Shown: positions 5,492 through 60,223 of the stretch, piece by piece | How the letters are laid out: every line of letters begins with the position of its first letter | Position numbering within the stretch: the stretch's first letter is position 1 | The notes under the pieces: model-generated | The model's input: the letters and a program-made list of their open reading frames with translations, nothing else | Told to the model about the DNA's origin: nothing | Database searches by the model: none | NCBI GenBank assembly: GCA_000934665.2 | Contig: KZ537963.1 | Span: 186,001-247,391, forward strand | DNA length: 61,391 bases | Direction of reading: 5' to 3' | From: Catajapyx aquilonaris | Lineage: Eukaryota | Translations under genes and position numbers: made by a program

Positions 5492-5556
5492 ACTTACTAT
5501 ACAATGCTGGATGTCAGGAAAGCACCAACTCACCTGGAAGACAAGAAAATAAAGTG
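5492..5556 (-). other. Candidate recursive splice site with 36-nt cryptic RS-exon (or microexon)
   Basis: Minus strand reads CACTTTATTTTCTTGTCTTCCAG|GTGAGT (junction 5534/5533) after an AG-free stretch of ~68 nt, then ATA|GTAAGT at 5497-5492. Confidence 0.55.
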
Positions 5557-8500
5557 TCATGAACAATGCCGCCATAATCATAATAAAGAAGGCAATGATA
5601 TACACTGCTGAAAACACGCTCACAACAATGTGTCGGCCCTTTCCTGTCCGCAATCAATCAACTTCGAGCGAGAATTGAGAAGAAAAAGGCCCAGTGAATC
5701 AAGCCCATTCCGTTCCATTTGCCATAAAAATGAAGTTGAACTGGTGAGGACTTTCCCCTTGAAATAGAAGCGCGTTTGAGGGACAATAAAATCCTAATTG
5801 GAGCTCGTAGTCTTGATTGCCAACTGGGGTCCTCCGAAAGTGCTCAGGTGAAGTCACTAGACAGCCAATCGGCTCTTAGAATAAAAAGAAACGGAGCTGA
5901 AGCAGACGAGACCTTAGTAAGGAGAAGGAGAAAAAAAAGTCGCAGGGTTGTCGTCGCCTTCTCGACACGAGTTGGCAGGCCAGACAATAAAATGTACGCC
6001 TCAAGTGTTTACGGCCTGTAAATCTGCCGAGTGACATGAACTATCTTCCGAAGCAGCTTCCTCTGATTGTACAACCGCTCGATTATGGTTTTGCAAAAGA
6101 GTTTTTGGCAACGTTTGCTAGAACGTCATGTATGAATATATTTTTTGGGGGTTCGTTCAGTCGCCATAAAACCCTCCTGCGGCGTTATGCCAGTCTCGTT
6201 CATAAATATTACATTAAGGAAAAGCCGGCTTTGCCTTTGGCCCCGAGTAGATTTCACACACTGCCAGGCCCTGGGTTGGTTGCTGGTCTAGAATGGGGAG
6301 TGACCTCCGCTCAAACTGGGGATTCGTGGGACTATTCATCATCATGGGATACCAACCGCCATTAACTCTCACAACCCAGGCAATCAGGATTATGGTTATT
6401 TTCATCCCTATATACCGTCCTGCAATGCTGGGACTGAAAATTACTCATTCAAAAGCTATACAGTACGAAAGAAAATTACACGTTTAAAAGCAGGCAACAT
6501 TTTCGTAACTGGGAGTAAGGAAGAAAATTAATTAAATATTTTCCCAGAATTTTAGTGAAGTACGGTACGACTTAGAGGAACTGGTCTCTTGAGTGAAAAT
6601 TAATCAAATAGCTATAATCGTGTTATATAAGTGGAAAGTGGAGGGAGAAATAACTGAAATTGAGCCAAATGTTTATTTTTCGCTGGAAAAATATTAGTTT
6701 TAGAACGTGCTCAGTATGCATATATATTATGCAAATATTATACGTATAATGTATCTTAATGCCTATGAGAATTATCAACATTTTGAAGGTGACAATGTGC
6801 GATAACAGATAAACTCTCGCCATAAAAATCATATCGGTCTAAACCCTCTGGTATATATCTCCCTCCAAAATCCCAATCAGCCGTTCCATTAATTGGTCTT
6901 ATCTAAATTAAGATCAGAGTTGGTGCGACGTCGTCAGGCCGCAAAACCCGCAGACAAACGGCGGGTTGCCCCCTACCCTTAGCTGGCTGACCCTTACTAA
7001 TCACGTCATTTGTCAAGGAAGTCTTCCCAATCTCTGCCATGGACAGCTACATCAGGGCGTGTGTTGGGATCTTTTACAAGCCTGACCCCCCCTACACCAC
7101 AGGTTTCTCATGCACAAAAATTGGCTAGAAAGTCGGCCCCACCGAATTAGATGTCCCGACAATCGAAATGGGAGGAAAGCTCCCAGAGTGAAGAATGGCG
7201 GCGGAAAAAGGGGAACAAAGAAACGATTCCGTGCCCACATCACTTGAAGGAGGAAAAGGAAGTGTCCGTCCCCCTCTTCCCTCAAGATTTGTGGGCCAGT
7301 AACTTAACGTGTGTGACGTAAAATGTGTCAGTCTTAAGAGTGAGTGTCAGCCTCCCCGGTAGGAAAGCATTTAAGCAGTTGCTGCTGGGTTTGGACTGGC
7401 GAAATTTATGGGTGACGTGAGTTTTCTTTTATGGGGTCAATTTTGCGAGCGATTGCGAGGTAATTGCACGATTAAAGAAATTTTTTTCTGCGCATTTCTC
7501 AAGTGAAACTGCAGGCAGATAAGGAACCGTTAGCGTACTCCTGGGAACAGACCATTAATACTGAAGATATTGATAAATTATTGAGCAATTTTGCGAATGT
7601 GAATATTTTAAAACACACTATTCATATTGTGGCCAGCTCCACCTATTACTGAAAGAACTGATGATTCCGGTTCTTGCAAAAGTGATCAGATGGCGCCACT
7701 TCCTTAAATGAGTGTACACACCACCAGACATTACAGATTATAACATTTGCCCCAATGAAAAATGCAATTATTGCAATTGTTAATTACAAAATAAATGCCG
7801 GAAAGCATTATACACATTCATTAATCAATTTATAGGCGCCGATTGCACACATTTCAATACGTCACTATTATCCTGACCAGACGGCTAACCACAAGCCAGT
7901 GCCGCCTGACTGGTTGCCTAATACCAAGGATGTAACCTGAATACCTCTTCTTTACAATGTGAAAGACAACAGTAAGCCACTGAGAAATTCTTTCTCCTCG
8001 GGTCTCTCCAAGGGCCTAATCCACTAAGGTAAAAAAAGGGTCGGCAAGAACAAAGGAAAGAATGAAATATGAGACGCAAAGTTGGAAGAGATGAAAGGTA
8101 TGTAGCCATAATACGAGCGTATACAACTAGCTGGAGTATGTCTGCACTGTGAGCACAAAAGCTTGCAGATAAAGATTTTTATGCATGCAAAAAATATATA
8201 TATATTGTAAGGTCCCGTTTGGTTGATCCACGCGGCTGCTGCCATTTATAATAACGTGTGATCTCAGCAGTTATATCTCCCTTCCTTTCCCTTCCTCCTT
8301 CCTGCAGGCGTCTCATAAATTATAGACAACCCGCATTTTAGAACACGACAAAGCGTAATCGAAACAATAAATCTCTTTTTTCTTCCAGACTAAGACGAAT
8401 GAGTTTGATATTCATGGAATCTTTTTCGATTTCCCTAGTTTTTTTTAAAGGTTCGCTGCTGTTGCTTCTGTTTCCTTGTCCTTCGTGTCAAATCCCCATT

Positions 8501-11500
8501 CACACAATGCTTTTTTTTTGTGCGAGATTTTTTTTTGTCAGATACTGTTATGGGGACTGGAGATTTCCAACGCGGAAAGGCACTTGGAAACAGTCCAGTT
8601 GCAGTTCGATATGCATTTACATGGTAGCCTCATCCGTTCCGACAGGATTTGTTCGAGCGGAAAATGACAAACAAATCCGACCCAAGAATTGGACAACAAA
8701 AAAAAACTTAGAACATTTTCATTTTCGATCCTGAACCTTCCTTTTCCGCAACAGTTACTCGGACTGTTATTTTCATCTAAAAATGTGTGAATCTGGCACT
8801 TTCTAGAGCAGCTTGCCCACAATATAACAGACCAGTAATAGATTTCTTTTTTTTTACAACAACTGGTAGAAAAAGTCGAATTAGTCCCCTAGAGACCACG
8901 TGGCGAAATAAGTTTCGTGGCAAGAAAGCTCCTGGGTCAATTCTTCGGCCCTTCTAGGTCCCTCAACCACACAGCGACCTAAAAAAAAAAGGTCGAAAGG
9001 AGAGGAAGAAAAAAAGAGAGAAAATAAATTCGAGGCACGCTCACACGTTCATAACGAATGTGGCACCCGAGGGACGACATCCTGGGCTTTTTTGGCTTTT
9101 TCAAAATGGCCTCTACATCCAGGCATTACAGTTCCCTTGCCTCCCTCGAAACGTGAGATGAAAGGGCTTGACGGGAATCAGCAGCGTTTCTTTGGAGAAC
9201 CTGTCACCAGCACTGTTCAGAAAATGGCCAAGTTGGCTTGGGGAAATTCCCACTTCTGTCCGTCTAGACGTTATCAAACCTAGCGCTTTTTAAGCCACCA
9301 GGAAAGAAGAAGGGAAATTGCTTCCAATAAAACATTCAAGCTTTTCTCGAGGATTTCCAAGAAGTGTGCACTCTCGATTCAATCACCTTCACCTCACTCT
9401 CATATCCCTTCCCCACTATATTAGATTGGGTCTTGTCACAACTTGACATGGAGACATCAAATCATACTCCACGACTTTATTGAAATGAAGGAAACGCGAC
9501 ACTTTAATTTTTCAATCCGTTGTGCTGGGTTATTGTCCAAGAATGTGCCTTACTTTTATATTTGAAAAATGCAGCCAGAATAAAATTATACTATGGCAAA
9601 GATGAAAAATGCGAGAGACCACAAAGGATGTATTTTTAGTCAGATAATACAAAATATTTCTATGGTGTTGAAAAGGCCAGCAAAAAACAGTTGCTTTCCA
9701 GTTTTTCAGAGTAACATCTTTTTTTTGGTGTCCGCGGTACAGTACCTGTATTTTTTTACAATATACGAGATTATACGCGTATAAAGGAACTTTTCATTAT
9801 TTAACAAGTTTTAATTATCGATAAAAAGGCGCTAATCTGTTTTAATTTGTAGCATTTTGTTCCAAACGGTATAATTTGTGTGTATCTGTTTTGCCTACTT
9901 GTAGGAATTTTTTTGAAGAAAAATTTCTCAAAAGGATGCTGCAATATTTGCTTGACTCATACTTGGTCTCTGACACAATCACTGGGGGAAAACCCTGGAT
10001 AAATCTGATCTTGCCATGATAAGGTCTTTGAACATCCCTGTCTTTCGGGGATTACACAGGCACAACATAAATCCATTTTTGGTATTAAAAATAAGATTAC
10101 TTTTGAAGACAAGCTTAGACAGGCGTACATTGCCATAACAAACAAATGTTTTTCTGCAAATATTGGAACGTTCGAGATAAATCAAATCTCCAAAAGTTAG
10201 CTTTCTTTTCATATTTTTAATATAAATATTTAATATGCCACAGGTTGTTTGCGATAGTCAGTTTTCGGCTGTTATATTTTATCCCCGCTGCAATATATTC
10301 AGCAAACATATATAGCTGATACTAACTGAAAAGAGTAACATATACTAGAACCTACTCCTTTTGAATTTTTCTCTAAACATTCCGAAAAGTTAAAGCCTAC
10401 GCATGATTTAAAATTCCGTTGGCTCCATTTTTGTACTGCGTTTGTATAATATTTTTTTGTAAGAAATTAGTGGAGTACTGTGGTGCATTAGAGTCAGAAC
10501 ACTGCTGCAGTGAATACCTCCAAGCCCGGCAGAAATAGTTTCCATCAAAACTATCCGTCTCGCCATGATTATTTAGGCGCAGGGTGGACGTTAAAAAGCG
10601 GGAGCGAAGGTCTATTAAAACTTTATCTGATTTGTGCCGGAATGGCTCTCCGGGGGTAATTCCTATGTAAATGTCACGAGGTTTAATTAGATGCGTGCGA
10701 TATGGACGACATCAACATGCTGGTTGATGGCTTGAACGACGGAGCCAGACGAGAGACACCATCCCCCATCCTCTCCCCCCTCATCCTAGCTTCATCCTCC
10801 GCACCCATCCATCCGTCCAAATATTTGGCAGGGAACCCATTTCGCTACGTGCAACTCGGCTCAAAACGTCGCCTAAGTGAAGCGACTCTGCCCGGATCTT
10901 CCGGAGTAAGAAAAGTCGCGGAAGATTTGATTAGCAAAAATATGAGTGAAAGAAGGAGCTGAGATTGCTGGGATGGGAGAGTCAGAGAGGAGGTTGGGTA
11001 AGGGAGGAGGGGGAGGGGGGGGAGGGGGAAAAGCGCAATTTCTACGGGCATAGGGCCCTCCAGGGAAGTGAGATAATGGCCGTAAAAGGAGCCTCGTTTC
11101 TAGTAAACAACCAGGGCCATCATAAAAAGCCATCTAAAAATTAACGTCGCTAGCTAAGAGATAATCTTCACGACTGGGAAATAGTGCCGATTTATTCAGT
11201 CAGGTGAGCACCCAAGCTTGGATTTCACTGCAAATGGATGTAGCCACCTTTTTTTACTCTTTGGTAGTGTAGAACAAGTGCGAAGGGGAAATGATGATGA
11301 AAGCAAAGTTACGATCCGGGTTTATGTGCGTCGGATTACCTGGAATTATCCGGAGAAAGCCCTGTGATTTCTGAGAGAGCCAAGTGAATATTACACACTC
11401 CATTCAAGTACAGTCAGTTTTACTATAAGCAGTGTTAGGTTTAGAAATAATAAACTCACTTAAAATAATTAGTGGAATTGTGCACCACCTTGTATGTGAA

Positions 11501-17500: not shown

Positions 17501-19307
17501 ATTAAGAGTAACATTCGGAGCTCATAATCCCCACTAGAGAAAGTTGGCATGGGGCCCCCTACTCTTGCTTCTGTGTGGAAAACCCTGTTTTAAATAGGGC
17601 TATACACTCTTGTTACAAGCTAATTATATAACAGGACATCCCACGGCGGCGGAGGTGCGGCAGGCCATGACAAGATTTTGCCAGGATTTGCATGCTCTTG
17701 TTGTATCAGGATGAGAGGCTTACCTCAAATCTGGGCTGGGACACTACTGGGTTTGGAGGAAAATGTAGCTAGACACAACTGTTGTGTTAGCCACAGGTCC
17801 AGAGGAATTCTGTGGTACAACAGCACCTAGCAACAACATTGCTGAGATGTATCCATTAGTTAATGTGGAAGAATGTCATACTATGCCATAAAGTTGACAG
17901 TTATTGAGGGAAAGGTGCGCCACCTCAAGAAACACGCACACCTCACCCAGTTATGACTTCAGAATACGGTCATCCTCCCCCATGATAACCTGCTTCCAGA
18001 CCGGAAATGTAACCCGAAATGAGTACTAAAATTGTGAAATAAGCTGTTAAGACATATGGGATGTGTGTTAGAACGAACTCCCCATACGTCGTAAATAATA
18101 GGTTGGCACAAGTGCAAGTTTAGTGATAGATGAGAACGGAGTTAATGGATGGCTAAAGAGTGCGGGACAACCCAATATATCGTGCTTATAGATGCGAACA
18201 ACCATGGATGACAATACAAATTACAGCAATTTTAAAGGAAACAGTGATGAAGAACCCTACACCTTAAAACCCAAAAGAAAGTAATCGACCGATCATTCTG
18301 TAAACTGTTACCATTTACACAGTAATTATTATGTGACATGAGTGCCAGATTTTGTCGATTTATTACACATTATTATTATTTTGCTGCAAAAATATAGAGT
18401 GTCAGATTTGGCTGAGTTAACAATATTGTTTCGGCGTCTCATTGCACTGTCAACGATTTGAAAATGTGTCGAATAAATTTCAAAAGTGATAGACCTATTA
18501 TTCAAATCAGCAGTACAGTAGTGTGTGATTACCAATAACTACTTCATACACCAGTCACAAACAACAAACAGTACATCCCCCCAACAGCATTCGAACTATT
18601 TGCAGTTAAGCTTTAATTCACCCTAATTATACACGCCCGAAATGGCCGGCCACGCACATGTACCACAGCCCCAGCTTTCATATGCACACAGCAGACAAAA
18701 CAGGCATATACAATACTCTAATTATAATTAAAACGATGCCCCCGAAATACCAGCGCATTGGGGGCATACATGCCGATAAATTCGATTGTCACATTGCAAC
18801 CGCCACTCATCATGTCAGTCTGCACGTTGCAGTTGTCATCCAATTTTGGGTACAACTATAGTCAAGGTGCACGCGATATTGCAGATACAGTTTTGCTCTA
18901 AAATTCTGAAACACACGGTGGAGCCATGTGCATTGGCCCACGATTTATGAGATGTGCGTGGGCGCGTCCGACCCCCCCAAAACCCTCGCCATTTATCACT
19001 TTCCAAGGGGGGGGCCACCCTTCCCTCCTCCAAATTATAAAAGAGAGAGGGTTTGGGTTGCTTCTTTTCCTAACCCCTTGGACCGGGCGTCTGTTGCTGA
19101 CGGGATGCCAAGGAGTTGCCCTCCCTGCCTATGATTTATGGGCGGATATAATTTGTCGCCACGACCCCCCCAACAATACACGCTGCTTTATTGCGTGTAC
19201 TGCTCTCTCTCTTTTTCGAATATCTGTACAGTGCACAGCAAGAGGTATTGCGTGTGTTAATTAGTGACCAGAATGTAGTCAAGTACTATTTCTAATATTA
19301 GGCCGTA

Positions 19308-22600: not shown

Positions 22601-23612
22601 CAAATCCCGGGCAAACTTGCAAATATTTCTAGAAAATCTTCAGATGTTTTATACTGATAGCCTATTTCTATTTTAAAAACTTTTCTCACACTTGCACCCT
22701 GTATCATGTGAGAGAGCATAATCTCGCATTTCGATCATAATCTCACCCACTTCCTCACCTGCACACACGTTTTTTGGCCATCATAAATCTTCGCAATTAA
22801 TTTTATATTAAACTCTCATGAATCTGACTTATCAACGACCCTGCCTACGACCTCGTCAGGAATTTTGTCGTGCCACCTGCTTAAATCCGATAGCCCTCAC
22901 GCATATTTTTGTAACTTTTTTTTCCCCCCAGAAAAAAGACCATGTTTGGCTCATATCACATGCCAGTTCATGACCTCTCTAACGTGTACGAGATATCAAT
23001 CACTCGAAATCCTGCGCAGCACCGGATAAATTTCTGACTGAACCCGGACAAAGCCCTTCTAGTCCTTCCCCTTTTGCAAGGGACCCAAGGAAGACCCTTG
23101 GCCACAGTCTGATGTAAAGTATAAAGGACTGGCGTGAGTGATCCCAGCCGAGCAATCTCGTTTCCAAGAAGCTTAAGGGGAAGGTTCTCTCCCTTGAAGA
23201 GGATATGCAGAAAGAGAGAGGAAGGGGGGGGGGAGGGTTAGAATAAGAAAAAAAAGAGAGGAGGAAGATACGCTTTTTCTTTTTCGGAGTTATGTATGGC
23301 ATGCAGGATTCAGAAGAAGCCGCTCCGGGCCTATTAAAGTCGGAGGAAAAACCCTGTGAAAAGTGCATTAGAGCCAGAAGCGATTCGCGGGGAGAATCGA
23401 GAAAGCACCGATTACTTGTGAGGAGGGGCATTAAGGATGAGGTGAAAATCCGGAAAATATTGGGAGGATAAGATGAGCATTAGCACCAAGATTGATTTTG
23501 CATTACTGATGCGTTTGAAGCCTCTATACTCAGCTTAAGAATTTTTCAAGGAAATGTTTCATACTATGAAATATTGCAGTTTTGGTCTAGAAAGATTTTC
23601 AGTATGCTATGT

Positions 23613-23817
23613 ACTCGATATATCGGACATACTCGATATATCGAACGTACTCGATATATCGGACATACTCGATATATCGAACGTACTCGATATATCGAGC
23701 GTACTCGATATATCGGACATACTCGATATATCGAACGTACTCGCGGATTCGATGTATCGAACGTACTCGATTTATCGAAAGTACTCGATGTATCGAACGT
23801 ATTCGTTGTATCGGCGT
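23613..23817. repeat. 18-bp minisatellite (~11 units), consensus ACTCGATATATCG(GACAT/AACGT)
   Basis: Seven near-perfect contiguous units 23613-23738, an 8-bp interruption, then four degenerate units. Each unit has the palindromic core CGATATATCG. Confidence 0.95.
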
Positions 23818-24208
23818 ATTTCGTCAAATCAACACACAATTTCATGCCTATGTTGTTGGCTATGTACTTTCATGACAAAATGTGTTTAGAAACATGCCCG
23901 TGCTACCTGCTGAAGTAATTCAGACACGGGGGGCGACACGTCCGTTGCAGGTAATTGGCCTCGGAATAGTAAAGAGCTCGGAGTCAGATGCGGGACCATC
24001 TGAAGGCGCAAGCCAAGATGAAAGTGTTGCTAAGTCTGCGCAAGTTGGACAATGAAGGCTGTTCTTTGAAGCAGGAAACGCTTCCCTGGCGATGAACACG
24101 CTTCTCCCTCCCCCCCTCCCTTTCCATACCCCCTCCCTCGCCCCCCCTCCGAAAACCCAGATTACCTCCCATCCACGCCTCTATTTCCATGGAAATAGAG
24201 GACGCTAA

Positions 24209-24331
24209 NNNNNNNNNNNNNNNNNNNNNNNNNNNNNNNNNNNNNNNNNNNNNNNNNNNNNNNNNNNNNNNNNNNNNNNNNNNNNNNNNNNNNNNNNNNN
24301 NNNNNNNNNNNNNNNNNNNNNNNNNNNNNNN
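24209..24331. other. Assembly gap (123 N)
   Basis: Run of N, followed by a poly-G tract; a single N also occurs at 30356. Confidence 1.
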
Positions 24332-27300
24332 NGGGGGGGGGGGCGGACTCTTAATTAACGACCGATGCAATTTTCATCTGCGCTTACACCGTTTGCAGTG
24401 TTAGCTCCTGGTATTGTAGATAATGGTCTGATCCGTTTAACGGTCCGGGGGAATGCAGATAACTTAGTTTGATAAATTGTGACAGGTCAAGATGAACTCA
24501 TGGGTTGTAGATTTTTGACACATCCTAACAGGACACAGAGCACGTGCAAAACTGCATTTATTGCACCATTCTTCCCCAAAATATATACCGCCCACCTCCA
24601 TTTCTCTGTCCGAGTTGGAAAACTGTCCACGGCAGGTATTTCTGGAGCAGTTTCGTGACTTGTGGCGCAAATGAAAGGCCTCAAGGGACGCGATCTTGGC
24701 TGGCAGCCCGAGAGATAAATGATCCCCCTCCTAGTCACAATGGTCTTCCGCGTTGCTACATCCGAGCCCATTCCGTGAGCCGACTACCCAAAAACATCCA
24801 AACGTTATTTTGTTCCACTGCATGTCTTCGACTTCCGCCTCTCTGTACGACAATGTTTAAAAAAAAATCATGGAAATTGTTTGTATAATTGGACGTAACT
24901 CACCAACTGTTGGGAGCTCACCTGTATCCTGCAGGTACTGCACAGGAAGTGCTTATCGGTCAGGTGGTCATCATAGGGGTACCGATTCCGCACATTTTTC
25001 AGCAGGTGGTGATAATGTGGGAACCTTGTAAATTCCCACCAACGTGAGAAACCGACACACTTCACTTCCTTCCTCTTTTCCGCACGTGTAAAACGCGTTT
25101 GCAGTTCTCCCCCCAAAAAATAAGAGGACGGAAAAAATTTTTACTATGAGGAGGGTATACAAAAAAAAGCCTACTAATTCAGATGAAAAGTGCCTTCCAG
25201 CATGAAACTCTGGACAGCTAGGTTTTTGTGGGGGTTTGCTGGAGATATACCCAGTAGTTTTCCTACTGCTGGGGACGGTTTCATTAACGCGGTCGACCAT
25301 TACAGCAACGCTGCTGGGATGTAATCGTCATTTCTATTCGGGAGTAACGATCCAGATATGGATTCAAGCTCCAATTACCTTGTCGCTTCAAATTAGGGGC
25401 CGGGCTGTACGTCAGTCCGACGGTTCAGAACCTTTGAAAACGCGCCGATGGGAGAGAGGTCCCTGTGTGTGCAAAATTTAATCCGGGCAAAAATCACCAG
25501 ATAACTGAATAGCGTGCGAGTCGAGTAACTGATCCAATTTGGGAGGCTTTTTGCGGGATAAATCAACCAGAAAGGCTTGTCACTGTTTCGGTATTTCCGC
25601 CATGCAAAATTGGGAACGGTGCGCCTTATTTTAAACCCCAATTTTTTTCTTCAAAAGAGTGGTGATTAATATTCCAGGATTATCCGGATCAAATCTCAAG
25701 TTGCAGAAAATCCGGTACATTTTTTTTCTGAAGCTAAACTGACATTGCCTCCATTTTCTAAGCGAGTTTTCCAGGCTTCAAAGACGCCCCTTTTCCGGAA
25801 GCGGATGCAGGGTGAAGTTGCCATAAAGGAATGTCATGATTTTCTTCATGCTGTCTGCCTTTTGTCTCGACTTCAGGAAATCGCAGCATTCCGGGCTTCC
25901 ATCCGGATCTCAGTGAGTCGCAGTGTCAGCTCGAAACTTGACTTGAAGTGCGGAAGAACCATTTTGATAGCATTGCAGGCTAGGATTCCTCCGGCTAATA
26001 TTTTGGTTAACACGCCACATCGTCTGAGGAATCTGGCTTATATCAAACTCATAAGGAATCTGTCAGGCCGTTAATGCGTCGTAATCGGAGAAAACTGGCA
26101 AGAAAAGTCTGCAGTCTTCGAGCTTAGAAGACATGGATTACTCCCTGAGCCGCAGCGGAATTGCCAGAATTACCTCCCCCAAAACTTCCCAGATCTTTAA
26201 GAGAAGGAGACGGATTCAATCTCATCAAGCGCACGTGTGATGCGGATAATAGCAAGATACGCCTGCAGGGTGCGGGGAAGGATAGAAGATTATAAAAGTT
26301 GAGAAACCGATAAGGATACTGTGGGATAGAAGCCCTCCCCCTTTTCTGCTGGGGAAATGGCGACAGGCGAATCCCTCAGACCCATTTGCACCCATGATAT
26401 GGAGCGACAAAAGTAGGCCCCCGGATTATGCCTCGACGTCTTTCATTTTCCACAAGGGCAAGTCTCAGTCCCAATCGACGATTTGCAGCAAGGTATACTA
26501 CCCCCGGATTCTTTTTTTTCTTTCTTTCCGGGTTACCCCTGCCGGTTCTTGGCACGTGACAAATGGGAACGTCGGGTTCGATTCGGCTCAAGCTGTTCAC
26601 ACGGCGTCAGTTCGCTTTTATACCTAATCTTCCACACCTGAGCCTGATCCGGAAGAAGGGGACCCGTCATGAACCCACTTTATGCCCTTCCAGCTTCCAT
26701 CTTTGTTCATAATTGCACCACTCACCCTCTACTCTGATTTATTATTGCTACCTTCCCCCAGCAGCACCCTATGTGATATCCGGAGTAGCGTCATGGAAAT
26801 TCCTCCGCGTCTGATGGCAGAAGGGGGGGACATCAATTCCAGATATGTGGTCCTTGGTCATCCATCATATCCCCTCGAGAAGACAGGAAGCCAAGGGAAG
26901 GAAAGTTTGAATCAATTTCCCCTCATCATTCCCGGACAAAGTGTTTCGATCTATCAGGACAAAACCCTCGCCTGAGTTTGACCGCGTCGTAAAGCCCCGA
27001 CGGGGAAAAGACAAAAAGTGCTGAAACCCCAATGGTACTGTTCGGGAAGGGATCCGCATAGGGTGTGTCAAAAAGGCCGCCTGAAATTTCTTTAAAACTC
27101 CTAGCAATTTTTCAAAAAAAAATATTTGACCGGCTGTGTCCATCCGTCTGGACAGTGGACAGTTATCAGGGCACAAACGGTATTCGGAGTCAGCTGACCC
27201 TAAATATAGGTTTCGTGGTCAACTTCCGGTTCCAGGATCACTATCTGCCAAGGTCAAGTCTACAGGCTGGTGATCTTGGACTCCTTGGGAACAAGAAATG

Positions 27301-30300: not shown

Positions 30301-31234
30301 GGTATGGGGGGGAAGAGAAAACGATAATGATTCCCCCCCACCCCCCCACCACTCCNAAATCCTATCGGCAACCAGGGTCACGTCTGGTGGCCTGCTCTGG
30401 GATTCCCCAATTGCACCTCCTGACAACTTTACTCACTTTGGTCGCTCCCTGTACTGGCTTTAGTGTCGTGAGAAGAGCTAGTGGGTGACAGCCGACTGTT
30501 CATGAATTATACAGAATTACGGGGTAGTAAACAGAGTCAGGCAGGGGCTGGATTGGTTAGGAGTTAGAACCATAGAGACTAGCTGCTACCTGCTTTGCAC
30601 CTTACTGGTTTGTTTCTCAACATGTCTCATGTATTTTAAAGCTTATAAGCCACAAGTTCGCCACATGGATGAGATGGACAGCCGATTAACATACGAATAT
30701 TCAAACGCAGATGGACCATTCTCCATCTGCATACACTCCTGCCACCCTCAGGTCGTGTGAGAGATAGCAGTACTATCAGGTCGGCTTCTGTGTAACATAT
30801 AAGATTCTAGCAACTGGCACTTCGGACTCACCCTGTACACTAGTCCAATAAGCAATTTGTATTCAACAAGTGCTGAACCGATAGAGCGATAATACAAGGC
30901 ACGCACTTATCATAATTTCATGTTACGTATCATTTGGATTTAGTCCAAGAGATGGGCAGTGGGCAGCACGTCCGGTGCATGTAATTAACAGCTGCATAAC
31001 TATATACGGGGTCCGGAATGGTAACAGTAGCGTATAAATCACCAAAGCGTTTCATTTCCGGAAAAGGATGAAAGCGATGTAATTCAGGATACAGTCAACT
31101 GCAGACCTTCCCACGATGGGGCTAATAAATCGTTGGTTCAACCTCATCGAAACAACTGCGGAAGGTGCTCGTTTGTTAATCACAGACCCGGGGAATATGG
31201 CACAGCCAGAGGATATTAAAATATACAGCGTGAA

Positions 31235-31325
31235 ACTTACCGTTAGGTCCAGATGGTAACCCTTCACTGTATGAAACGAACAAATTTTCCATGCGTGTCA
31301 CTCACCTGGAAAGAGAGAAAGTAGC
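31235..31325 (-). other. Candidate recursive splice site (ratchet point) with 65-nt cryptic RS-exon
   Basis: Minus strand reads GCTACTTTCTCTCTTTCCAG|GTGAGT (junction 31306/31305), then ACG|GTAAGT at 31240-31235. Confidence 0.6.
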
Positions 31326-34300
31326 GTGCTCAAAAGTCCAGACACTCGGAATGAATTATTCTCACATTCTCCTTCGCAAGGAGTTGCGCTCATATATGGT
31401 TGCAATGCAGGAAACGAAGAATTTTCTTTGTCCGGTCTGGATGGAAAAAAAAATTGCAGTAGGGAAAGACACGGGCAGAAAAATTCACAAAAATGTTCTC
31501 AGGGTGTGTTTGCAAATGACTAATTAGAGTGTAACGCAAACACTCCCTGAGAACATAGTCATTTTTATGACTACTGTCCACAATTAATTATTGAGGGGTT
31601 TAAAATGTTATGAACAGTATGCCATAATTTGGGTGCTACAACCCGACAATCTGCACCTTTTTATGCAAATGTGACAAAATAAAATAATTCAAAGAAGGTC
31701 ACAAATTTTCAACACCGAAAGGGCCCTCCCAAAATAACGCATTCCCAACGTTCTCGCTTAAAATTCACATAAAAGGGAGAGGACGTAAAATTAAGTCATT
31801 CCTTCCGCTTCCCGAGAAAGAAAGAGAGAGGAAAAAAAAGAGGTAGACGAAGTCGCCCTATTTGCGTTCCAAAATCATCCTTTTCCCATCTCCCTTGTGC
31901 CCCCTTGAAGACGAAGAGGAAGAGGAAACTCCAACAGCTGTTGGGGGTCCTATGAATAGATCCGATAAACTAACACTGCTCCTCACGGCTCATGCAACGC
32001 CCATGTCATGTACTGCACACCATTTTCAACAGGTCCAGAAGAGAAATTGGGGTCCCTACTCTTTCCTCTCACACCCATCCATCACTTTCAGGGCTTCGTC
32101 TTTTGGGGGGATGAGACTTGGAAGATGGTGCCAACCGCCATTTTTTTCTCATTTTGCTCTCCTTCCGACGCTGACATTTTGACCTAGGCAATATCGGGAG
32201 TCGTGATTGACAACCTTTGGGGGGGTTCAAACGTTGGAAGAATGCCTGAAACGTGCATCTGGTTGCAATACTCAACTTGCAATTAGTCGGTGTTGAAAAG
32301 TTTACATTTCTAGCCTGAGAAACAACCGTTTGTATTAGACTGAAGCTTCTTGTATTCTAATGTTTTCTTCCCCCCCTCACGGTTTGAAACGAACAAGAAA
32401 TGGAAACGTCTCCTCTCCGGAAATTCAATAACAAAACTTGTGGCAGGAACGTCGTAGGCGTGATGGATTGCGCCAGTTTTTCCAGCGACCCCCTCACGTT
32501 CCTCAGACTTCATGAACCAGCTTCTGGCATTTCTTCCAGGCCCTTTCCATTAACCTAACTTTGCCTCTGGAGCCAACCTTCCAGTGGAAAAAAGTGCCAA
32601 AAAAATACATGCCCGCCTTCTCTATATACACAACAAAAGGTGAGAGGAACGTCGGAGCACTTATTTACACCGTGTCTCTTGGCGAGAATTTTGTCGCGAG
32701 ATGCTTGAACTTGGACCAGGCTTGAATTAGAACATCTTACACACCGGTTTGGTGCAATCAAAGTTTTTAAAACCCAACAACAGATGTAAAACAGTCAAAA
32801 AAATTATGTAAACTTAAAAAATTGTTGGTAGTCCTGTCTGACTGAAATAGATAGTCTAAACAAATTTTTTTCAAGGTTATGAAACCTGCATTGAGTTCAC
32901 TGCTCTGCTTAAATGGGACGCGACTATGAATAGCTTTACTACCCCTAAGGGGTTCCAGTAAATAACACAGAACATCCTGTTTCAAAATGGCAAAGTTCGA
33001 AATCCAAGCTACAAACTTTAAAAGTTGGCAACCTCAGTTTTATTTCAAACGACTATACTCGTAATGTTATCCACGCAAGTAGGCAACACCCTTTACCTTC
33101 CAAGGTCGGCAAATGCACGCACATTTTCAGTAGTGAATCACTCTCCAGTCGTAAAAATCCGCCTCTTGTTACAAGTCGTTCTTTTTTTTAACAAATAAAA
33201 AGGAAAGAACGGCGTCTTGTAAAAGCAAGCACCGAAGCTCATCGCGTGTTAATTCTAGTCATCAATTACATCGCTTTCCTTTCAAAGATCCTCCTCGCAT
33301 GTGATTATGAGCGTCCATTACAATTTATGACCGTCCGTGAACTGTTCACATTCCATTGGACATTACCACACATACAGGGCATAACAGTTTTTAAAATAAT
33401 ATATAGCATAATAATTCAAACCTGCCAAATACCTGCCATCATTTTATAGTCTATTAATTATTCGGGCTTTTGAAGCGAGTCTGTTTGCTATTATTTTGTC
33501 TTCTCTCGCAAAAACCTGGTGGCGTGTTTTTTTCCCTGGCTTCGTTAAGGCTATTATTTAATTACGGGCTTTCGACTTAATTACCGGCACGCCCCGATGC
33601 ATATATCAAGGGTGTTTTGATTACCTGTTGCAGAGCGATGTATAGCGTTGCTGTGACAAAATTCCGGGCTGCAATTCTTCGTATTAAAAAAAAGACAAAC
33701 GAGGAGGGTGTTGACTTATTAGGTTTGCAGAGTTTTATGCGACAGGCTGATTGAGTTATATTTTTTTTTGCAAAATTTTTCATTCCGTTTATGTGTGCTT
33801 CCATTGAAAGCCAGAGATGGAAAAAAATACTGTTGCAGGTTATGTGCCAGCCAAAAATTTGCATATATTCAGTTTCACATTACAACAGTTAGCATGTAGT
33901 CAATTAACTGCTGTTCGAATGTACTGTAATTCGCCTGATATCAACTTCCATTACGATATCTTCCGGAGATAAAGAATTACTTACTGCGAGAACACTTCTC
34001 ACAACACACAGTTACGCAGCATTGTGATCGAATTAGTGAGCCATAATAGACCCAACTGCTCGTAACTGTATCCTGATTATGTGAAAATTCGGATCATGAT
34101 CCCAAACAGGATCCAGTCTTGCTTACCCTCCATATTTTTTTTTTGTATAATCTTCGTGGGATACATCCCACGACGCTACAACTCCAAGAGAATTTCAAGA
34201 ATTTTCCAGACCCCTAATTTCCCCACCTCTAATCAAAAGCCCCCCCTCCTAGTCCTATCTTTATCGAAACCTCAGGCGGTGTTGCCAGCTCTCTAAATCC

Positions 34301-37300
34301 CGCCACCTGTCACGATCCCTTTTCTATTTTTAAAACTCGGGTGAAACAGTTTCATAAGCATCGACGAAACAATATCCCACGCCAAACAAAAGGAGTGAAC
34401 AATTGGCGTCATTAATTATTGGTAATAAGTCATTACACCTCATTCTTTAAGGAAATCGTATGTTCTGAGCGTAACAAAAAGATGGAGGGGGAAAAGATAA
34501 TTCCTTTTTGATCGATGACCCTCTGAGATGAGCCTTCCTTCTTTGAACTGCCTTGAGGGGATGTAATGCCTCAAACTCCTCGGACCCCTCCATTATTCAA
34601 GACCCAACTTCACATTGGAAATTACACCTTTGGTGGAGTTCGAATAAGGTTGACTTCACGATATCCCATTACGGAAGAGCCAGGTTTTAATTAAATAAAA
34701 ATTGTGCCGGTAAATTTTGCAATCGCACTGTCGCTTCTAATCTTCTGGTGTTACAAAAAGGTGGTAATGATGAATACGATCGTTCGGATGTACTTTAATG
34801 TGGCGTAATTTGTTGCCAATTAGTTATTCGATTGCTGCAACCCACAATCCATTACGTGTAAATGCATCGGTAGGGTCAATTACCACCAGTGTTTTATGCT
34901 TGTAACACACTGTGTGCGACCATGTCGCTTTATGCTCGCTCAGTATCTTGGAGCACCAATAAAATATTTCAAAAACCTTACACATTGTGTATGCATAATT
35001 CAAACCATGGCGTACCCCGCCCTGCACCAGTAAAACCTACGAAAAAAAACCGCTACACCCTGAATAAACACGCCACGCTCTTTTTCCTCCCACAACTTCC
35101 TTTAACTGTACAGACTCTTCTTACCTTATTTTATCTTTCGCAACGAAACGGAATCACCCAAAAAATCACTTCCTCTCCCCTAAAATCCACCTGTGAGTGT
35201 CACCACTTCCTCCTAGTAACTTCCTGCGAGCTTCACCATCTGCCAAACTCACACTGGGAGAGAGCACTGAGCACCACAAACCGAAACAACCCAACCGCCA
35301 CCGGGTTGCTTGACTGACTCCCTGGGCTGGCTAGGCCTCTAACTTCTAACCCAAGTGGGCAACCAAGCGAGAAGGGCAGCCCCTCTCTCATGGTTAAGAA
35401 AAAAAAAGGTAAAACGAAGAAGAGGAGGCCCACCTTTCCAAGGCGAAGAAGTCGTGACATGGCCAGCCTGCATAGGCACGCAATGGATGCTGTTCACTCT
35501 CTAGTGTAGCACCTCCCATATGAGCATATTTCTCAGGAATTTCGACCTTCATCAATTGCGGTCAAGGTATTGTTGGTGATTGACATGGCGTGGTGATCGA
35601 TAGGCAGTGTGGGGAGGGGATTTATCATTACAGGGGCGGTTATTGTGCTCGGTGCTGTAGTTTGTTTTAGGGGGTTGAGCCATGCTATTGTTGACGGCTT
35701 ATGGGCATCGACGATCGGTTACAATATTGTGACATTATTTTCTAGAGAGCGGGTGCAATGAATCACATCAAACTGCTATCGTGTTACGGCATCGGGTATT
35801 TCAAGCTCGCAGCTGTTATGAAATGCGGATATTATTATAATATTGTAAATAGCAATTTTGTGTAGTTTGAAGCGGTTCTATGAATATTACCGTCCGCTGT
35901 AATGTTTATAAAAACAACTCTAAGCAATTTATTTGCAATAAATCGACGTGAACCTCATATTACTGAATTTTTAATTCTAAAACTACTGTAATCATTTATC
36001 ATTAAACATGTACTGCTCACTAATAAGCATTAGTTGAAAATGTTGAGATTTGACACGACTATTCCTTTGATCCCCTCTAATAGGCCGCGGTTCGCGCTAA
36101 AATAGCAACTGCAACAAATGAGTTCCGGCATGAAAATGGCACATGATATTCCCTCTGTAGCTGACACCTTTTAAACTCCCAAGCTGCTGCATACCCCTTC
36201 AGGATATTCACCTCAGTACCCCTGACAATGCCTGTCAGGCGTATTTGTCAATATCGCATTTCCACCAGACAACAAACATCTGATTAATCACGAACTAACG
36301 GTGCCAGCACCTTGCGGTACACTGCACTGGCGCAAATAACCATGCAGTCATCCTAGTCAGATATAGCCATATGCTGCAGGAAAGATTTTTTTCACTGATG
36401 TGGTAAATGACTCCATTAAATTTTTTTTTGTTGCTTCGTTTTAAAGTGGTTACTGTGAACAATGGCGTCGTGCGTACGGTGGCCGAGTTGTGACACGGAC
36501 ATGCCAACATGCCCATACTGACCACGCCCTCTTTGTGTACTTCCCCCTCTCCCAGCATCAGAAAGACAAACGGTTATTACAGCAGACAGATATCACTCCG
36601 GGGGCATTTTTGTGGACGATCGAAGGAGAGGTCAGCTGGCCAAACTTTGCCTCACGGTTTATCTTCACGCTCGTTACGTCCGACAGGCGACTTTCAATAA
36701 AAAGAGGGGGGGGGGGGATTGCTGATTACCCCCGCTTTTCCTTTGTTGATGATGGAGGGAGGCTAAAATGAAGCCTCTCTCCAACATACTCCTCTTCTTT
36801 TTTCACACGTGACTATCTCCAACTTCCTCATTCCAGTCACTCCATTTGCATGGGGATTCATCTCTGGCCAGGAAACAATTGGAACCATCAAAGGGGGCTC
36901 GGTGACCACATCTCGTTAGCCCTCAGAACGGGCCGTGGAATAATGATAAAAAAAGAAGCAACCTCCAGGATGAGAGGCACAATGGCCGCATGCAGCTTCG
37001 TTAATAACTTCTCCGGCATAATTGAAGGATGTTCGCCGTGAAAAGGGCCTCTCTATAAAAGCATGTGTAATCTTTAAATGGCGCGTACGATAATGTGGGG
37101 GAACAGTCGCTGAGCATATGAAAATGTAACGCATGATATGCATAAAAAAGTGTAGGCAAATTGTGCCATGACTACCGGTATATCGCTCAAAAAGATAAGA
37201 GACGATTTTGCATCGAGACCAAATGCAAAATTGTCTCCATCATTTTCAATGCCTGATATAGTACAACAGGATGTTATACTTCACGATAAAGTGCCAATTA

Positions 37301-40300
37301 CTTCTGTAACGAGGCGTCCCGTTGCAGACCAAATGACATCCATACATCCTCGAGTGAACCGGAATACATCCCGTAGAAGTGTGTCGGTCCAGTTAAGAAA
37401 ATACCCTCAAGATACGAGTGTAATTGGTGCAATTAGCCCTTCAAAGGTTGCGAAGAGAAAGGCACGAGAGACGCCTTCCAGTAATAAAAGCTGATAAACC
37501 ACTATTTGACATAGCCTTTTTTTGTAAGCTACTTTACATGCCATGAATCAAGGTTAATTAATATTTACGCCACAGCGTAAAAAACCGCGTTGTAATCAGA
37601 CGTTTCAATACTGGTACGAGACCTATTGAGCTATAATATTTTTCGCGAATTATTGCCTTCTCCATTCCTCCTATAGAAAAAAAGCCATTTTCTTCTCCAA
37701 CCCCTGCGACCTTAATTGAATTAATCTGGAGTATGACCACAGACTCTCCTCGAAGTGTCCTCGGAGTCATCTAAACCATCGCCCTTCATCACCACCCCTC
37801 ATTCACTTGGACTTCCCGATGACATTACCCAGCATCTTCTCTTGCATCGAAATGCCTGCCAGATCCATCCCCCAGCCATTTCCATCAGTCCACGTCACTA
37901 TTCTACTAATTGGCTGAGATCCCCCACCCACCCTATATATACGTATATATTTTTTATGAGCCCGTATTTTTTCGAACAGGACATAAATCTAAATTTATGA
38001 GACCTGCCGGCAAGATGAACGATGAATTTTGCTGATCGCGACATATTTTATCAACAAAAACGATGTCAAATTTGTACAGAAGTTATACTGATGTTAGCCG
38101 GCAGTTAGCAAGCAACTGAATGGTTTCTCTACCCATTGCGCATGTGTAGAACACGGGCCAATAGGAAGCGTCGCGGTAACATGCCCACTACGATTGTAAT
38201 ATTATATAGTCTCACATGTCGCAGGCAAAGCCCTATTGTTGAAACTGAATTAGAACAAGTTGGCATGCTGGCGCCGGCGCCTGTAGAAAACACCTTTTAT
38301 TGTAAAGGCGGTACCGAGGAAGGGCTCTAAGTTCTGCACTAATTAGATCTGGTGTCGTTAATCACCAGACTCCTCTGCCAAGGAAAGTTAAGACCTTAGA
38401 TACGAATCTTCCTCTCATTGTAAGTCTCCACTCCTTCACCCGGAGAAGTCACCTGGGAGACAGGAGAGTGCCGGATTATCGGAGCAAAATGGCACTAGCA
38501 CAGTCTACTCTGCGACATTTGGCGACGGGATTGTTCTGGCAGAGTTTCCGGGCCCTTTGAAAGGGTCAGAAGGAGGACCCAACCTATATATAATTTAATG
38601 CCAACAAATGTTCCGGACAATACCAACTGGACGCAGTGCACCTTTATAAGTAATTAATATGGTATTCATTGGCCTATTTTCATTGCGCTGTAGTCAAAGC
38701 TTTGCGGGGGTCCAGATATTGGAGGCTGCAGCTACAATGAATATGGAAATTTCCCTATTATTGCATTCAAATCGGTGGAATTTACATTTCGACACTTTGC
38801 CAACCTAAAGAGTCGAGGGCCTCTCATGCAAATGAAAATCCTGATCTGTTCAAATAAGGAAACTTAAATATTATTCCAGGTCCGTTCTCCCTGCTTTATA
38901 TACCAACTTGCGTGGCAGATAAACCCGCAAATTTGTTATTCTCTTGGTGAGCAATTTCTGGCATCCACATCTCCCAAGCACAAGCTGACGTCAGACTATC
39001 TTGATTCATGTAAATGAACTCAAGCACTCAGACCATTAGAGGCGCCATCTGTATATATAGGTCTCTTCTCCCTCCCCCTTCTTTGGTGGCCAGAGGAGGG
39101 AAGGAAATTATGATCTTCTGTTGACTTAATATTGCCTCTGTCGTATCACAAGATGCATTAATCCCTTTCTCAGATGTCGTGATTAAATTGGGAGAAGTCG
39201 AGGGAAACTTTCTCGCCCCTGTTTCTATGGGAGTAAATGGTAAATGTTCTGTCGGGCCAACTGTTTATCCAAGTTTCTGGCTTTGCTGTCTTGTTGGGAA
39301 ATAGCTGGTACTTAAACTGTAGGTGTGGCAAAGGAAGGGGATGTCGAGGAATGGAATTTGCCAGTGTGACACCGCTTGTCTTTGGTCGGATCAAGTACCG
39401 CAAGAGAAGTTATGAAATATTAAATTCGACTGATAGATATGCTTAAATTTTTGCGAATTAAATGTTGATCCGTGTGTTTAACCTTCTGCGTCAGTAAACA
39501 AAAGAACCACTAAACCTTAATTTCCTCTCCATGGCCCGCCTACTTCTCATTACTGCTCCCCCCAAAAAATTAGGATCAGTATACATTCAGCACACGTATC
39601 GAACCTAACCGAATTAATCCCACCTTTTCATTCTCGGACCGTCCGAATTGCCCCCCTTTTTCCGAGCTGTTTGGGACGGATCGGTGGGTCCGTCCGAGTG
39701 AATAGAAACTGGTAAAGAGAGAGCGAAAAAAGGGGGGGACACAATAATTCTTGTGCCGGAATGCTCGTCCTAGCTGATTGCAGTAGTAAAAATGAAGTGG
39801 AACGCGAACAACTGCAACTCGGCACGCGGCTTTTAATGCCTTTTTCCCCCCTCCTTCCTCTCTGTAGGTCTGGCAGAACAAAGACTTACGGAGGAAACTA
39901 TTTCTGCCGTACTTCAGATGGCATCAGACCTGAAAATGGCGCAAGAGGGAGGGAGGAGACATCAAGCGTCAGAAAAGCTCTGTCGAAATCGGAATTTTTA
40001 TGCCTGGAAATGACGACAAAAGTATAACGGACCTGCCGGCAAACTCGTTTAATATGACGTTGACGTTATGACCCGATCAATAAAATGACACTTTTTTCAT
40101 ATTTAAAAAAATGGGGTGTGCCAGATTGCAATTATGGCCCTCCCTTCCTTTATAAAAAAGGGCATAAATAACCACCCTGTGTAACAATGTGCGAAAAAAG
40201 GTCGAGAACTATTTTGGAAATGATTGATGACGTCTTATGTAGTGATTATGTTGGTTAATACCATTTTAAAGGAAGTAAGAACGTGGCGGTATAGTCGAAG

Positions 40301-43064
40301 AAGAGGGCTTTGGGATAAGAGAGATGTTTTTGTCGAGTCAGGAGTTAACATTATACTTTCAAATTTTAACCGTTGGGTTAGGCCTCGCATAAAGCATCCT
40401 GGTTGGATGAGGCTGTAGAATTTAAATTTGGAGGAACTTGAATGAAGTGTCCGCATTACAATAATTTCAAGCAGAGAAGTTTACAAACACACTGCATCAA
40501 CTGCTGAAAAAAAATTCATTGCCTCCTGAGTGTGGGAAAAAAATCCAGCATCATTACCATATATGAAATGAACAATATTGTTCAGGACTCACCCTTGTCT
40601 CTGAATCACCGCACGACTATAACAGTGGGTCCCATAAAAAAGTACAAAACCCTTGGTCCTCCTTTTTTCGATTATCATTTTGAGCGTTATCGTCACCAAT
40701 TTTACAACGTAGGCATGGAAATGCGGGGGAGGCAAGAAGGCGAGCGGAGGATTCTGCACAAAATGGGGCCATTTTCAAACGAACCAATTCCGAATGCATC
40801 CATCTGGGGGGGGAGGAAAATATGAGCCCTTACTTCACCCTCGTCTATTATGCTTCCATATCGAATGGGGATTGAAGCCGGATGAAGAATGCATAAGGGG
40901 ATCATGCAAAATATGCCCCCAACTCTCGCTCCATTCTTCTTATATTACGATAAGATTTATGTAGCGATCAGGCTCCTTACCAGTCAATCCATATAGAGTT
41001 GAGCTTCACGCCAAAAAATGATGGGACGGAAAAATTGTTGAAAAAGAACATCTGCTACTCATCATCAACCCCATGTTTACCTAAAGCTTAAGTTAACTTC
41101 AAGAGTGAAGCCCACACAATAAACATCTTGATTAAGTCTGGTTCATCTTCTATCGCGATGGGTGAAGCCTTAAAAATATATCTATATACACCCCCCCCCC
41201 CCACCTCAAGAGACATCTTCCCCATCCTCATTCCTCCCCTCAAACGAAAGAAGATGGGGAAAAAAAAGAATTTATTCCCAGAAAAAGGCTGGCCCAAAAC
41301 TTGAATAACATATCTTCCCATGGCATCAGCGAGAGGAGGGTTGAGTTCCACTTTTCCCCTCTGAGAGTGTGCACAAGAGCACATTGTGACAGCATCCATC
41401 CCAAATTGGAAAACGTTATCGCGGAAACAGCGGTGATGTACGGAGAGGGGAACTAGAGGCCCTTTTGTAGTCAGGAAAAGAAAATCCTTGGGTGCAAGCC
41501 CCATGTTTCAAGCTTCCCCCCCATCCCCAGATTTTGCATTTAAATTCATAGAAGTAGTGAATGGGCAGTGGTTGAGGGAAATTCCGATGCTGCTGTGCAT
41601 TTGGATCCGAGTGTATCCTAGCCTCTGTTTAATCTCAGCTTTGATTCCATGCCCAAATACCCTCGCGAGGGGATAAATCGACTAGAGAGAAAGGGTGGGG
41701 GGGAGGGGACTTTGCTTTTTAGGAAATGAATCCGTCGGATTTCCCAGGCGCTGTAATTGGCGGCAAATTTGATTTGCGCTTGCTGCGGAGAGAAGACACC
41801 GGTCGGGGAGGGTTATCCAATTATAACTGCACTGTCTGAATGCGTTATTGGCGATGGGGAAAGGTGCGGAAATGAGATGTGTTGTCTTGCGGGTTTTCGG
41901 TATACGTGCCAGCATCAGATTAGCTGCCAATTGGTTTTCGCGGGGTGCTGCCAGGCCAACTGGCTTTCCGGAGTTTGCTGCCGCTGTGGTCACGCTATCG
42001 GGTGATAGGACTTGTGTATAGAAAAAGAGAGTGAAAAATGGGCTTTGTGGTATGTTTGAATTTGTAATGAGCGAATAATTTCATAATGGACTGCAGGGTT
42101 CTCATTACGTCTGCAAGATCGCATCAGTGTAGAATCAGGTGCTTATAATCAAAATTGGCAAAATTTGATAATGAATTATATAACTAAATCTACCTAAATG
42201 AACATTCATTTTAAATATCACTAGAAAATTTCTTGAAAAGATGCCAATTTCTAATTGTTTAAGCAACAATGTTTGCGTTTTACTAGAGAGCCTCGAGGGA
42301 AGTTTTACTGTTGGTATACATAATAAGCAATACAAACAATCACTCTTGCACTGAACGCTTGAATGGAAGTTAATTTAATATTCAATATTCTAGATCAAAA
42401 TATTTGCATTAAGTTACAGGGATACGTAGCAATATCATTGAAAAAAATATTTCACACACTTGCAACTCGGTTTGGAAGTGAAATAGCCGGAAGGAAAATG
42501 TTATGCATAACTAAAGTCAATACAAAGTTTCGAGACATTCCCAACTAAAAGCGGTAGTTTATTTTATTACAAGTACTGTAATAATGTATTCTGGCAGCAC
42601 TAACAAGCCTTACATCTAAAGGAATGTCAATATTTTGCATTTTAAATGCCACACAAGGCAGTCGATTTGGAGGAGACCAACTTTATGTTTTTTTCTTTAC
42701 ACGGCTTCTGAGAAGTAGGACTGTAACGCATATTTAGATATGCAAATTATCGAGTCAAGCCTGGAGGCAAAAAAGAAGAAAAAAAACCCGAGCATCATGA
42801 GACATATAGGGTGGAGGCTGGATGTGTGATTGGTGGGCGGAGTTTCCAAGTATATCCAGGCCAAAGGCAAGTAGTCAATGTACGAGCAAGAATTTCCACA
42901 TTATTAACTAATTATTCGCTGGATTAATTTTGTCCACGTCTGCTTATAGAACTCTGTCCATATTTTAGAGCATTTTTATTTGTTAAATATTTTTTTAAAA
43001 ATATGCTTCAATCTCTCATTAAAATACAGATTGAATATGTGGCCCAAAATAGACATGATCAATT

Positions 43065-43110
43065 ACTTACAATAATGAAACTACTTACCTGTAAATGATG
43101 TAAAGGCTTT
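43065..43110 (-). other. Candidate recursive splice site
   Basis: Minus strand reads GCCTTTACATCATTTACAG|GTAAGT (junction 43089/43088), with a second GTAAGT 18 nt downstream (43070-43065). The pyrimidine tract is weaker than at the other two sites. Confidence 0.4.
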
Positions 43111-51134: not shown

Positions 51135-51135
51135 A
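51130..51135 (+). other. Possible polyadenylation signal overlapping the gene 1 stop codon
   Basis: GAATAAAT contains both the TAA stop and AATAAA; further AATAAA hexamers occur downstream (~51473, ~51584). Confidence 0.3.
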
Positions 51136-52010: not shown

Positions 52011-52013
52011 ACA

Positions 52014-53701
<1,688 letters not shown>

Positions 53702-57706: not shown

Positions 57707-60223
<2,517 letters not shown>

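Follow-up and report, generated by a model that had tools for sequence, protein, structure and literature searches.

The stretch of DNA analysed here (the window) comprises 61,391 nt of contig KZ537963.1 from Catajapyx aquilonaris (GCA_000934665.2, positions 186,001 to 247,391 of the forward strand). On its minus strand it contains three sites at which a 3' splice-site sequence is fused directly to a consensus 5' splice-site sequence, and each of these is followed within a short distance by a second candidate 5' splice site. The combination of a fused site with a downstream donor is clearly non-random, and at one of the sites the splice signals recur in a metagenome contig. From the sequence we consider it rather likely that all three are recursive splice sites of the type known from flies (ratchet points) and that a long minus-strand intron, extending across at least 5.5-43.1 kb, is removed stepwise.

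Layout of the three fused sites

Read on the minus strand, the junctions are TTTACAG|GTAAGT at 43089/43088 (site 1), CTTTCTCTCTTTCCAG|GTGAGT at 31306/31305 (site 2) and TTTATTTTCTTGTCTTCCAG|GTGAGT at 5534/5533 (site 3). All three have the form CAG|GTRAGT and the same orientation. A further GTAAGT begins 18 nt downstream of site 1 (at 43070), 65 nt downstream of site 2 (31240) and 36 nt downstream of site 3 (5497); on the minus-strand reading these coordinates match the three fusions and second donors listed in a first-pass annotation of the window. The distances of about 12 and 26 kb between sites that were given there measure 11,783 nt (31306-43088) and 25,772 nt (5534-31305; an approximate value that includes a 124-N assembly gap at 24209-24332).

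The acceptor halves of sites 2 (31306..31327) and 3 (5534..5555) each have 18/23 pyrimidines, while that of site 1 (43089..43110) is a moderate pyrimidine tract ending in TTTACAG, with 15/23 pyrimidines in positions -3 to -25. TT is present at -6/-5 in all three. The nearest upstream AG is at -20 in site 1 and -25 in site 2, with none in 70 nt at site 3, giving AG-free zones of at least 20 nt at all three acceptors. The 5' splice site created at each junction (the rebuilt donor) heads a putative short recursive-splicing exon (RS-exon), located at 43071..43088 for site 1 (GTAAGT, 18 nt), 31241..31305 for site 2 (GTGAGT, 65 nt) and 5498..5533 for site 3 (GTGAGT, 36 nt). The 18- and 36-nt intervals are multiples of three with one stop-free frame each; the 65-nt interval is interrupted by stops in each of the three frames. 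The putative RS-exon donors are the second GTAAGT motifs at 43065..43070 (site 1) and 5492..5497 (site 3) and, at site 2, the donor block GTAAGTTTCACGCT (31226..31240), which is collinear with GTAAGTTCACGCT of the metagenome contig described below. The exonic side of these donors is poor, with ATT, ACG and ATA preceding GTAAGT.

From this arrangement we infer a minus-strand host gene whose transcript would cross the region from a point above 43.1 kb to one below 5.5 kb, with 5534..43088 as intron interior and the true ends of the intron outside these bounds. Each site would provide a strong 3' splice site joined directly to a 5' splice site, with which a cryptic RS-exon begins. The pyrimidine tract and AG, together with the downstream GTAAGT, would define the short exon, and splicing of the upstream exon to it would restore a complete donor at the junction, reading (exon)AG|GTAAGT or (exon)AG|GTGAGT. 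This rebuilt donor would then out-compete the RS-exon donor, and the RS-exon would leave together with the next segment of the intron. The intron would in this way be taken out as pieces of ~12 kb and ~26 kb, plus a first and a last piece. By the competition rule given in PMC8605326, RS-exon skipping would be favoured because the RS-exon donors have poor exonic sides.

Motif frequencies and the counterpart of site 2

AGGTRAGT occurs three times on the minus strand and five times on the plus strand of the window, where 1.27-2.07 occurrences per strand are expected (Markov orders 0-3). For YAGGTRAGT the count over both strands is five versus 1.36 in 100 dinucleotide shuffles, three of which reach five. 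The fused octamer alone is no more frequent than chance, and three of its five plus-strand copies serve as exon-end donors in paralogous members of the fibrinogen-domain array described below. Moreover, CAG|GTRAGT alone cannot tell a ratchet point from a strong donor, because the ordinary donor consensus is also MAG|GTRAGT.

The downstream donor separates the candidates from ordinary strong donors; the five plus-strand AGGTRAGT sites pass as octamers but fail as composites. GTRAGT occurs 56 times in the window, 23 times on the plus strand and 33 times on the minus strand. Just three of these copies are followed by a GTAAGT no more than 100 nt downstream, namely those of the three fused minus-strand sites. 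AGGTRAGT-N(5-35)-GTAAGT is found twice and AGGTRAGT-N(36-66)-GTAAGT once, whereas shuffled sequences give expectations of 0.04 and 0.01; in all, three composites are seen versus ~0.05 expected [Poisson P(>=3) = 2e-5]. Counted over all 402 AGGT sites, a downstream GTAAGT is present at 3/8 of those with a perfect donor versus 3/394 of the others (Fisher p = 1e-4). TT at -6/-5 is found at 3/3 sites, and at the metagenome counterpart of site 2 as well, compared with 38/402 AGGT sites.

A relaxed scan (donor at least 5/6, pyrimidine fraction at least 0.6, pyrimidine at -3) passes 6 of the 402 AGGT sites, one on the plus and five on the minus strand, including the three sites. Only the three have a perfect downstream donor among these six, and they are the only minus-strand AGGT sites with perfect donors to pass the filter. 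The plus-strand candidate, at 48859, is weak. Two weaker minus-strand fusions lie at 38453 (CCCAG|GTGACT) and 1729 (GTTAG|GTTAGT), neither with a perfect downstream donor within 110 nt. It had also been claimed that the non-coding part of the plus strand holds no equally strong fusion, and this stands: the sole plus-strand AGGTRAGT below 49.8 kb (47787) is preceded by GAG and by 45% pyrimidines.

Metagenome contigs were scanned once, with a 20-mer spanning the site-2 junction. The scan returned a single match, in a public metagenome contig of 2,344 nt (L001), whose relation to the window may be that of an orthologue, a paralogue or the same species. L001 reads T-rich tract plus CTCTCTTTCCAG|GTGAGTG (...GTGTTTTTTTTCTCTCTTTCCAG|GTGAGTG), 57 nt, then G|GTAAGTTCACGCT; in the window, site 2 reads ...CTACTTTCTCTCTTTCCAG|GTGAGTG, 65 nt, then G|GTAAGTTTCACGCT. 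Identity is 22/22 in the core (31299-31320) and 15/18 in the donor block, compared with 26/56 in the interior of the interval, 17/38 in the upstream flank and 14/37 in the downstream flank. No other collinear block was found between L001 and the window in 4.5 kb (Blastn, word size 7), and the 26 open reading frames (ORFs) of L001 contain no Pfam domain.

The shuffle tests on L001 exclude the search 20-mer. The best local alignment of the region from +8 to +150 is the donor block itself, and its score is reached by 5/1000 shuffles when the match is held within 15 nt of register. Any GTAAGT within 100 nt occurs in 58/5000 shuffles of the downstream sequence of L001. Upstream of -16 there is no similarity between site 2 and L001 (1459/2000 shuffles reach the score). 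Sequence shared by site 2 and L001 appears to be restricted to the acceptor|donor core and the second donor. As the intervening sequence differs by 8 nt (65 versus 57), a conserved reading frame is excluded, and the lack of similarity upstream of the pyrimidine tract speaks against the junction being the end of an ordinary conserved exon. Ordinary exon donors had been considered at sites 2 and 3, where 64 and 41 open codons lie upstream, and were rejected as the main reading: these codons contain no domain, and L001 has no conservation upstream of the tract.

Scanning genome contigs with the site-3 20-mer also gave one match, at positions 1001-1020 (minus) of L002, a contig from a bacterial (Porticoccaceae) metagenome-assembled genome. 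This match has no extension of the pyrimidine tract and no GTAAGT in the 140 nt downstream; it is due to chance and was used as a chance control. It illustrates that single 20-mer matches in collections of hundreds of Gb need checking by their flanks. The 20-mers of all three sites gave no match in viral contigs, which leaves sites 1 and 3 with no counterpart in those scans and site 3 with only the chance match in genome contigs.

Alternative readings and surroundings of the sites

Stepwise removal of a giant minus-strand intron, as the first-pass annotation had proposed, is partly supported and agrees with every sequence-level prediction that could be tested. These comprise the composite, the pyrimidine tract with TT, RS-exons of 18-65 nt, segments of 11.8 and 25.8 kb, co-orientation and a non-repeat origin, to which site 2 alone adds apparent conservation confined to two splice-signal blocks (in one contig, L001). 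The proposal falls short at its flanks, where no host-gene exon was found. Base composition between sites 3 and 1 is weakly in keeping with minus-strand transcription. A strand with G>C and T>A is expected to be the sense strand of a transcript, and here the plus-strand skews are -0.017 for GC (z -2.1) and -0.023 for TA (z -3.3), so that the minus strand is weakly G>C and T>A; the GC skew of the plus-strand fibrinogen-domain array is +0.043 (z 3.1). The CpG observed/expected profile (0.60-0.94) has no informative pattern.

Several points weigh against recursive splicing of such an intron. The pattern was first spotted in the very window that was used for the statistics, and the minus strand shows no depletion of GTRAGT (33 copies versus 23 on the plus strand). 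Site 1 is weak, with its 15/23 pyrimidines and an 18-nt RS-exon that is short for exon definition. The skew is slight, and in the 10-15 kb and 40-45 kb bins its sign flips. Conservation comes from one contig, whether orthologous, paralogous or of the same species; a 20-mer can match by chance, as L002 shows, and the score of the donor block taken without positional constraint is modest (reached by 62/2000 shuffles). The window yielded no host-gene exon, promoter or terminal acceptor. The upstream side holds a plus-strand ORF and the plus-strand gene array, and the 5' exon would therefore have to lie within ~43.1-47.7 kb unless the array sits inside the intron.

The intervals of 18, 65 and 36 nt might instead be real short exons that are included in a minus-strand messenger RNA (mRNA) or long non-coding RNA, or be bounded by splice sites of dual or alternative use; the GTRAGT at the exon start would then act occasionally or never, as in expressed RS-exons, poison exons or decoy exons. 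We think this rather unlikely. The exon-definition signals are identical to those of recursive splicing, many annotated RS-exons are reported to be kept in mRNA in deuterostomes including sea urchin (PMC6224609), and two of the intervals are divisible by three with an open frame. However, the site-2 interval has stops in all frames, and its change in length (65 versus 57 nt) and interior identity (26/56) are not those of a conserved coding exon. There is no Pfam signal around the sites, and three independent exons that begin with a perfect GTRAGT would require selection for a recursive donor anyway. Also improbable, and more so, is that the sites are conserved non-coding elements which bind splicing factors but do not subdivide an intron, such as U1/U2AF pads against premature polyadenylation, decoy exons promoting intron retention, or unrelated elements. 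The restriction of conservation to blocks of ~22 and 15 nt fits this idea, as does the lack of an identified host gene, and decoy exons in large introns have been described (PMC7373989). Yet the exact AG|GT fusion and a full pyrimidine tract are required for re-splicing and not for U1 binding alone, and the whole layout agrees point by point with the description of ratchet points.

That functionless splice-like motifs came together by chance in intergenic DNA and merely caught the eye is very improbable. The octamer count is at background, the pattern was found and tested in one window, and one 20-mer match in a huge collection may be random; against this stand the excess of composites (3 versus ~0.05, p about 2e-5), the enrichment of pyrimidine tract and TT, which is independent of the composite count, and the downstream donor of L001, both its register (5/1000 shuffles) and the presence of any GTAAGT (58/5000). 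The idea that the sites are copies of a mobile element or gene fragment carrying an acceptor-donor cassette has hardly any probability left, as nothing speaks for it beyond the shared short motif. No repeat family takes in the sites, and 282 ORFs contain no transposase or reverse transcriptase domains. The flanks (-200..-23 and +9..+200) are similar only at shuffle level in 6/6 comparisons, with 173-429 of 500 shuffles reaching the scores; they are mutually dissimilar, and the sites are therefore not repeat copies. The antisense sequence ACTTACCTG was considered as a U1 small nuclear RNA gene and rejected (no Rfam matches). Recursive splicing of a long minus-strand intron remains the reading that we favour.

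The first ~49 kb of the window had been described as apparently empty. There are indeed no Rfam matches or transfer RNA (tRNA) genes in 1-49.8 kb, and the 282 stop-to-stop ORFs of at least 60 amino acids (aa) in this region contain no credible Pfam domain; the sub-threshold matches are DUF3417 (20.3 bits, cutoff 25), YgaP-like_TM (17.2, cutoff 25.3) and Med31 (19.5, cutoff 25). Internal repeats are likewise absent from 1-49.8 kb except for an 18-nt minisatellite (TCGATATATCGRACRTAC-like) at 23597-23831, which has at least 10 overlapping 65-nt register copies and adjoins the 124-N gap. The region is not wholly blank, as it includes the longest ORF of the window (227 aa, 45926-46606, plus strand). 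Residues 126-193 of this ORF are similar to a PARP-type zinc finger that P0087 carries in repeated form; this protein of 1376 aa has 11 zf-PARP repeats and a PNK3P-like end. Over 10 stretches the summed E-value is 2.4e-18, and each repeat is matched at 34-39% identity. Because the zinc-finger cysteines are replaced, the ORF is probably a decayed gene fragment.

The remainder of the window (49800-61391, plus strand) is a tandem array of four genes with fibrinogen C-terminal domains (PF00147) and a period of ~3.2 kb. The E-values of PF00147 for the four C-terminal exons are 5e-40 to 6e-37, and the repeat blocks of the copies share 65-97% identity. Five exons make up the last copy (~57708-57866, 57990-58166, 58514-58612, 59504-59645 and 59805-60222). 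The best protein matches of the array genes reach only 37-56% identity and are scattered over Branchiostoma, bivalves, octocorals, stony corals and vertebrates. In the 'longer' length class that was searched, 85 of 226 candidate proteins had E <= 1e-10, and the source thus appears as a metazoan with no close annotated relative in this collection. Positions 59080-59470 (plus), in intron 3 of the last gene, consist of a long (ATT)n microsatellite and, after it, a stretch that by eye resembles the head of a tRNA-derived short interspersed element on the opposite strand; judging by repeat families, the paralogous introns lack this insertion. The sequence ATGGAG|GTAAGT (47783-47794, plus), ~2 kb before the first copy, has a perfect donor right after an ATG and could be a tiny first coding exon of the first fibrinogen-domain gene.

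Comparison with known recursive splicing

The closest known system is formed by the intronic ratchet points with cryptic RS-exons of Drosophila (Ubx, kuz, Bx, luna; Duff et al., preprint 10.1101/006163; Joseph and Lai 2021, PMC8605326; Pai et al. 2018, PMC6110457). In flies, TT is reported at -5/-6 in 196/197 ratchet points and recursive segments measure between 2,596 and 63,580 bp, on average 17,953 bp (10.1101/006163). The fly RS-exon is described as cryptic and short (~50 nt, with variation), with a 5' splice site at its downstream end, an ultraconserved acceptor|donor junction and poorly conserved exonic content (PMC8605326), and recursive 3' splice sites are reported to be stronger than ordinary ones (PMC6110457). 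The sites of the window share with these descriptions the fusion of a pyrimidine tract and CAG|GTRAGT, the TT at -6/-5 and the short interval closed by a second donor. Their segments of tens of kb (11,783 and 25,772 nt) fall within the fly range of 2.6-63.6 kb, and they too lie in a long stretch of DNA with no coding signal; site 2, judged by one contig, also appears to combine conserved splice signals with a diverged interior. Unlike the Drosophila sites, two of the three rebuilt donors are GTGAGT instead of GTAAGT, and site 1 combines a weak pyrimidine tract with an 18-nt interval. The host is not a fly, and the neighbouring fibrinogen-domain genes match nothing above 56% identity. Drosophila ratchet points are supported by junction reads, sawtooth profiles and lariats, whereas the sites described here are known from sequence alone.

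The core of the three sites belongs to the same class as dual-specificity splice sites, in which AG|GURAG is usable as a 5' or a 3' site. Those sites are described at the borders of annotated alternative exons and are not known to have a second donor or to occur serially in a long non-coding stretch. In vertebrates, RS-sites and RS-exons were reportedly described in long genes by Sibley and colleagues in 2015. At the vertebrate sites an RS-exon is first defined, and its donor then competes with the rebuilt one (PMC6224609), which is also what we propose for the window. An expressed RS-exon of vertebrates or other deuterostomes is kept in the mature mRNA, its rebuilt donor being repressed by the exon junction complex (PMC6224609). 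Fully suppressed intronic RS-sites are few, with nine reported in mammals (PMC8605326) and n = 10 in humans (PMC6224609). Unlike this, three candidate sites within 38 kb are a fly-like density. Recursive splicing has also been studied in lungfish (10.1101/2024.12.11.627982).

Intronic recursive splicing has been proved at the RNA level in Drosophila and for a small number of vertebrate sites. Our literature search found no report of RNA-level recursive splicing in sea urchin or molluscs (for molluscs, incidental mentions only), and none of the matches listed for recursive splicing concerned a non-insect invertebrate, as judged by title or the start of the abstract. The three sites, if real, probably lie in a lineage that has so far had no such RNA-level evidence. 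What was found for other animals is limited to motif counts in sea urchin, bee, beetle and mosquito (PMC2773006) and to exon annotation in sea urchin, where Blazquez et al. 2018 counted putative annotated RS-exons (PMC6224609). More tentatively, the data would allow for the use of fly-type ratchet points on cryptic RS-exons, under purifying selection, in a metazoan outside the insects and vertebrates, a possibility that we hold to be open to considerable doubt. If it were true, exon-defined recursive removal of long introns would be an old and widespread animal trait and not a dipteran speciality, and in the site-2 module one would have a non-coding element of deep conservation that can still be recognised between genomes that cannot otherwise be aligned. 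The three composites and the one conserved counterpart offer a concrete and cheap target for dating the RS-exon mechanism.

The nearest precedent among motif surveys is that of Shepard et al. 2009 (PMC2773006), who report a strand-specific excess of fused ratchet-point sites (RP-sites) in introns over 50 kb of non-drosophilid invertebrates and not of vertebrates. Their densities per 100 kb are 0.54 versus 0.066 in sea urchin, 0.48 versus 0.12 in bee, 0.81 versus 0.10 in beetle and 1.03 versus 0 in mosquito. The local density in the window (three in 38 kb) is above these values, but under a different scoring rule: the survey scored the fused motif alone, genome-wide and in annotated introns, whereas the present analysis adds the downstream donor and one conserved counterpart.

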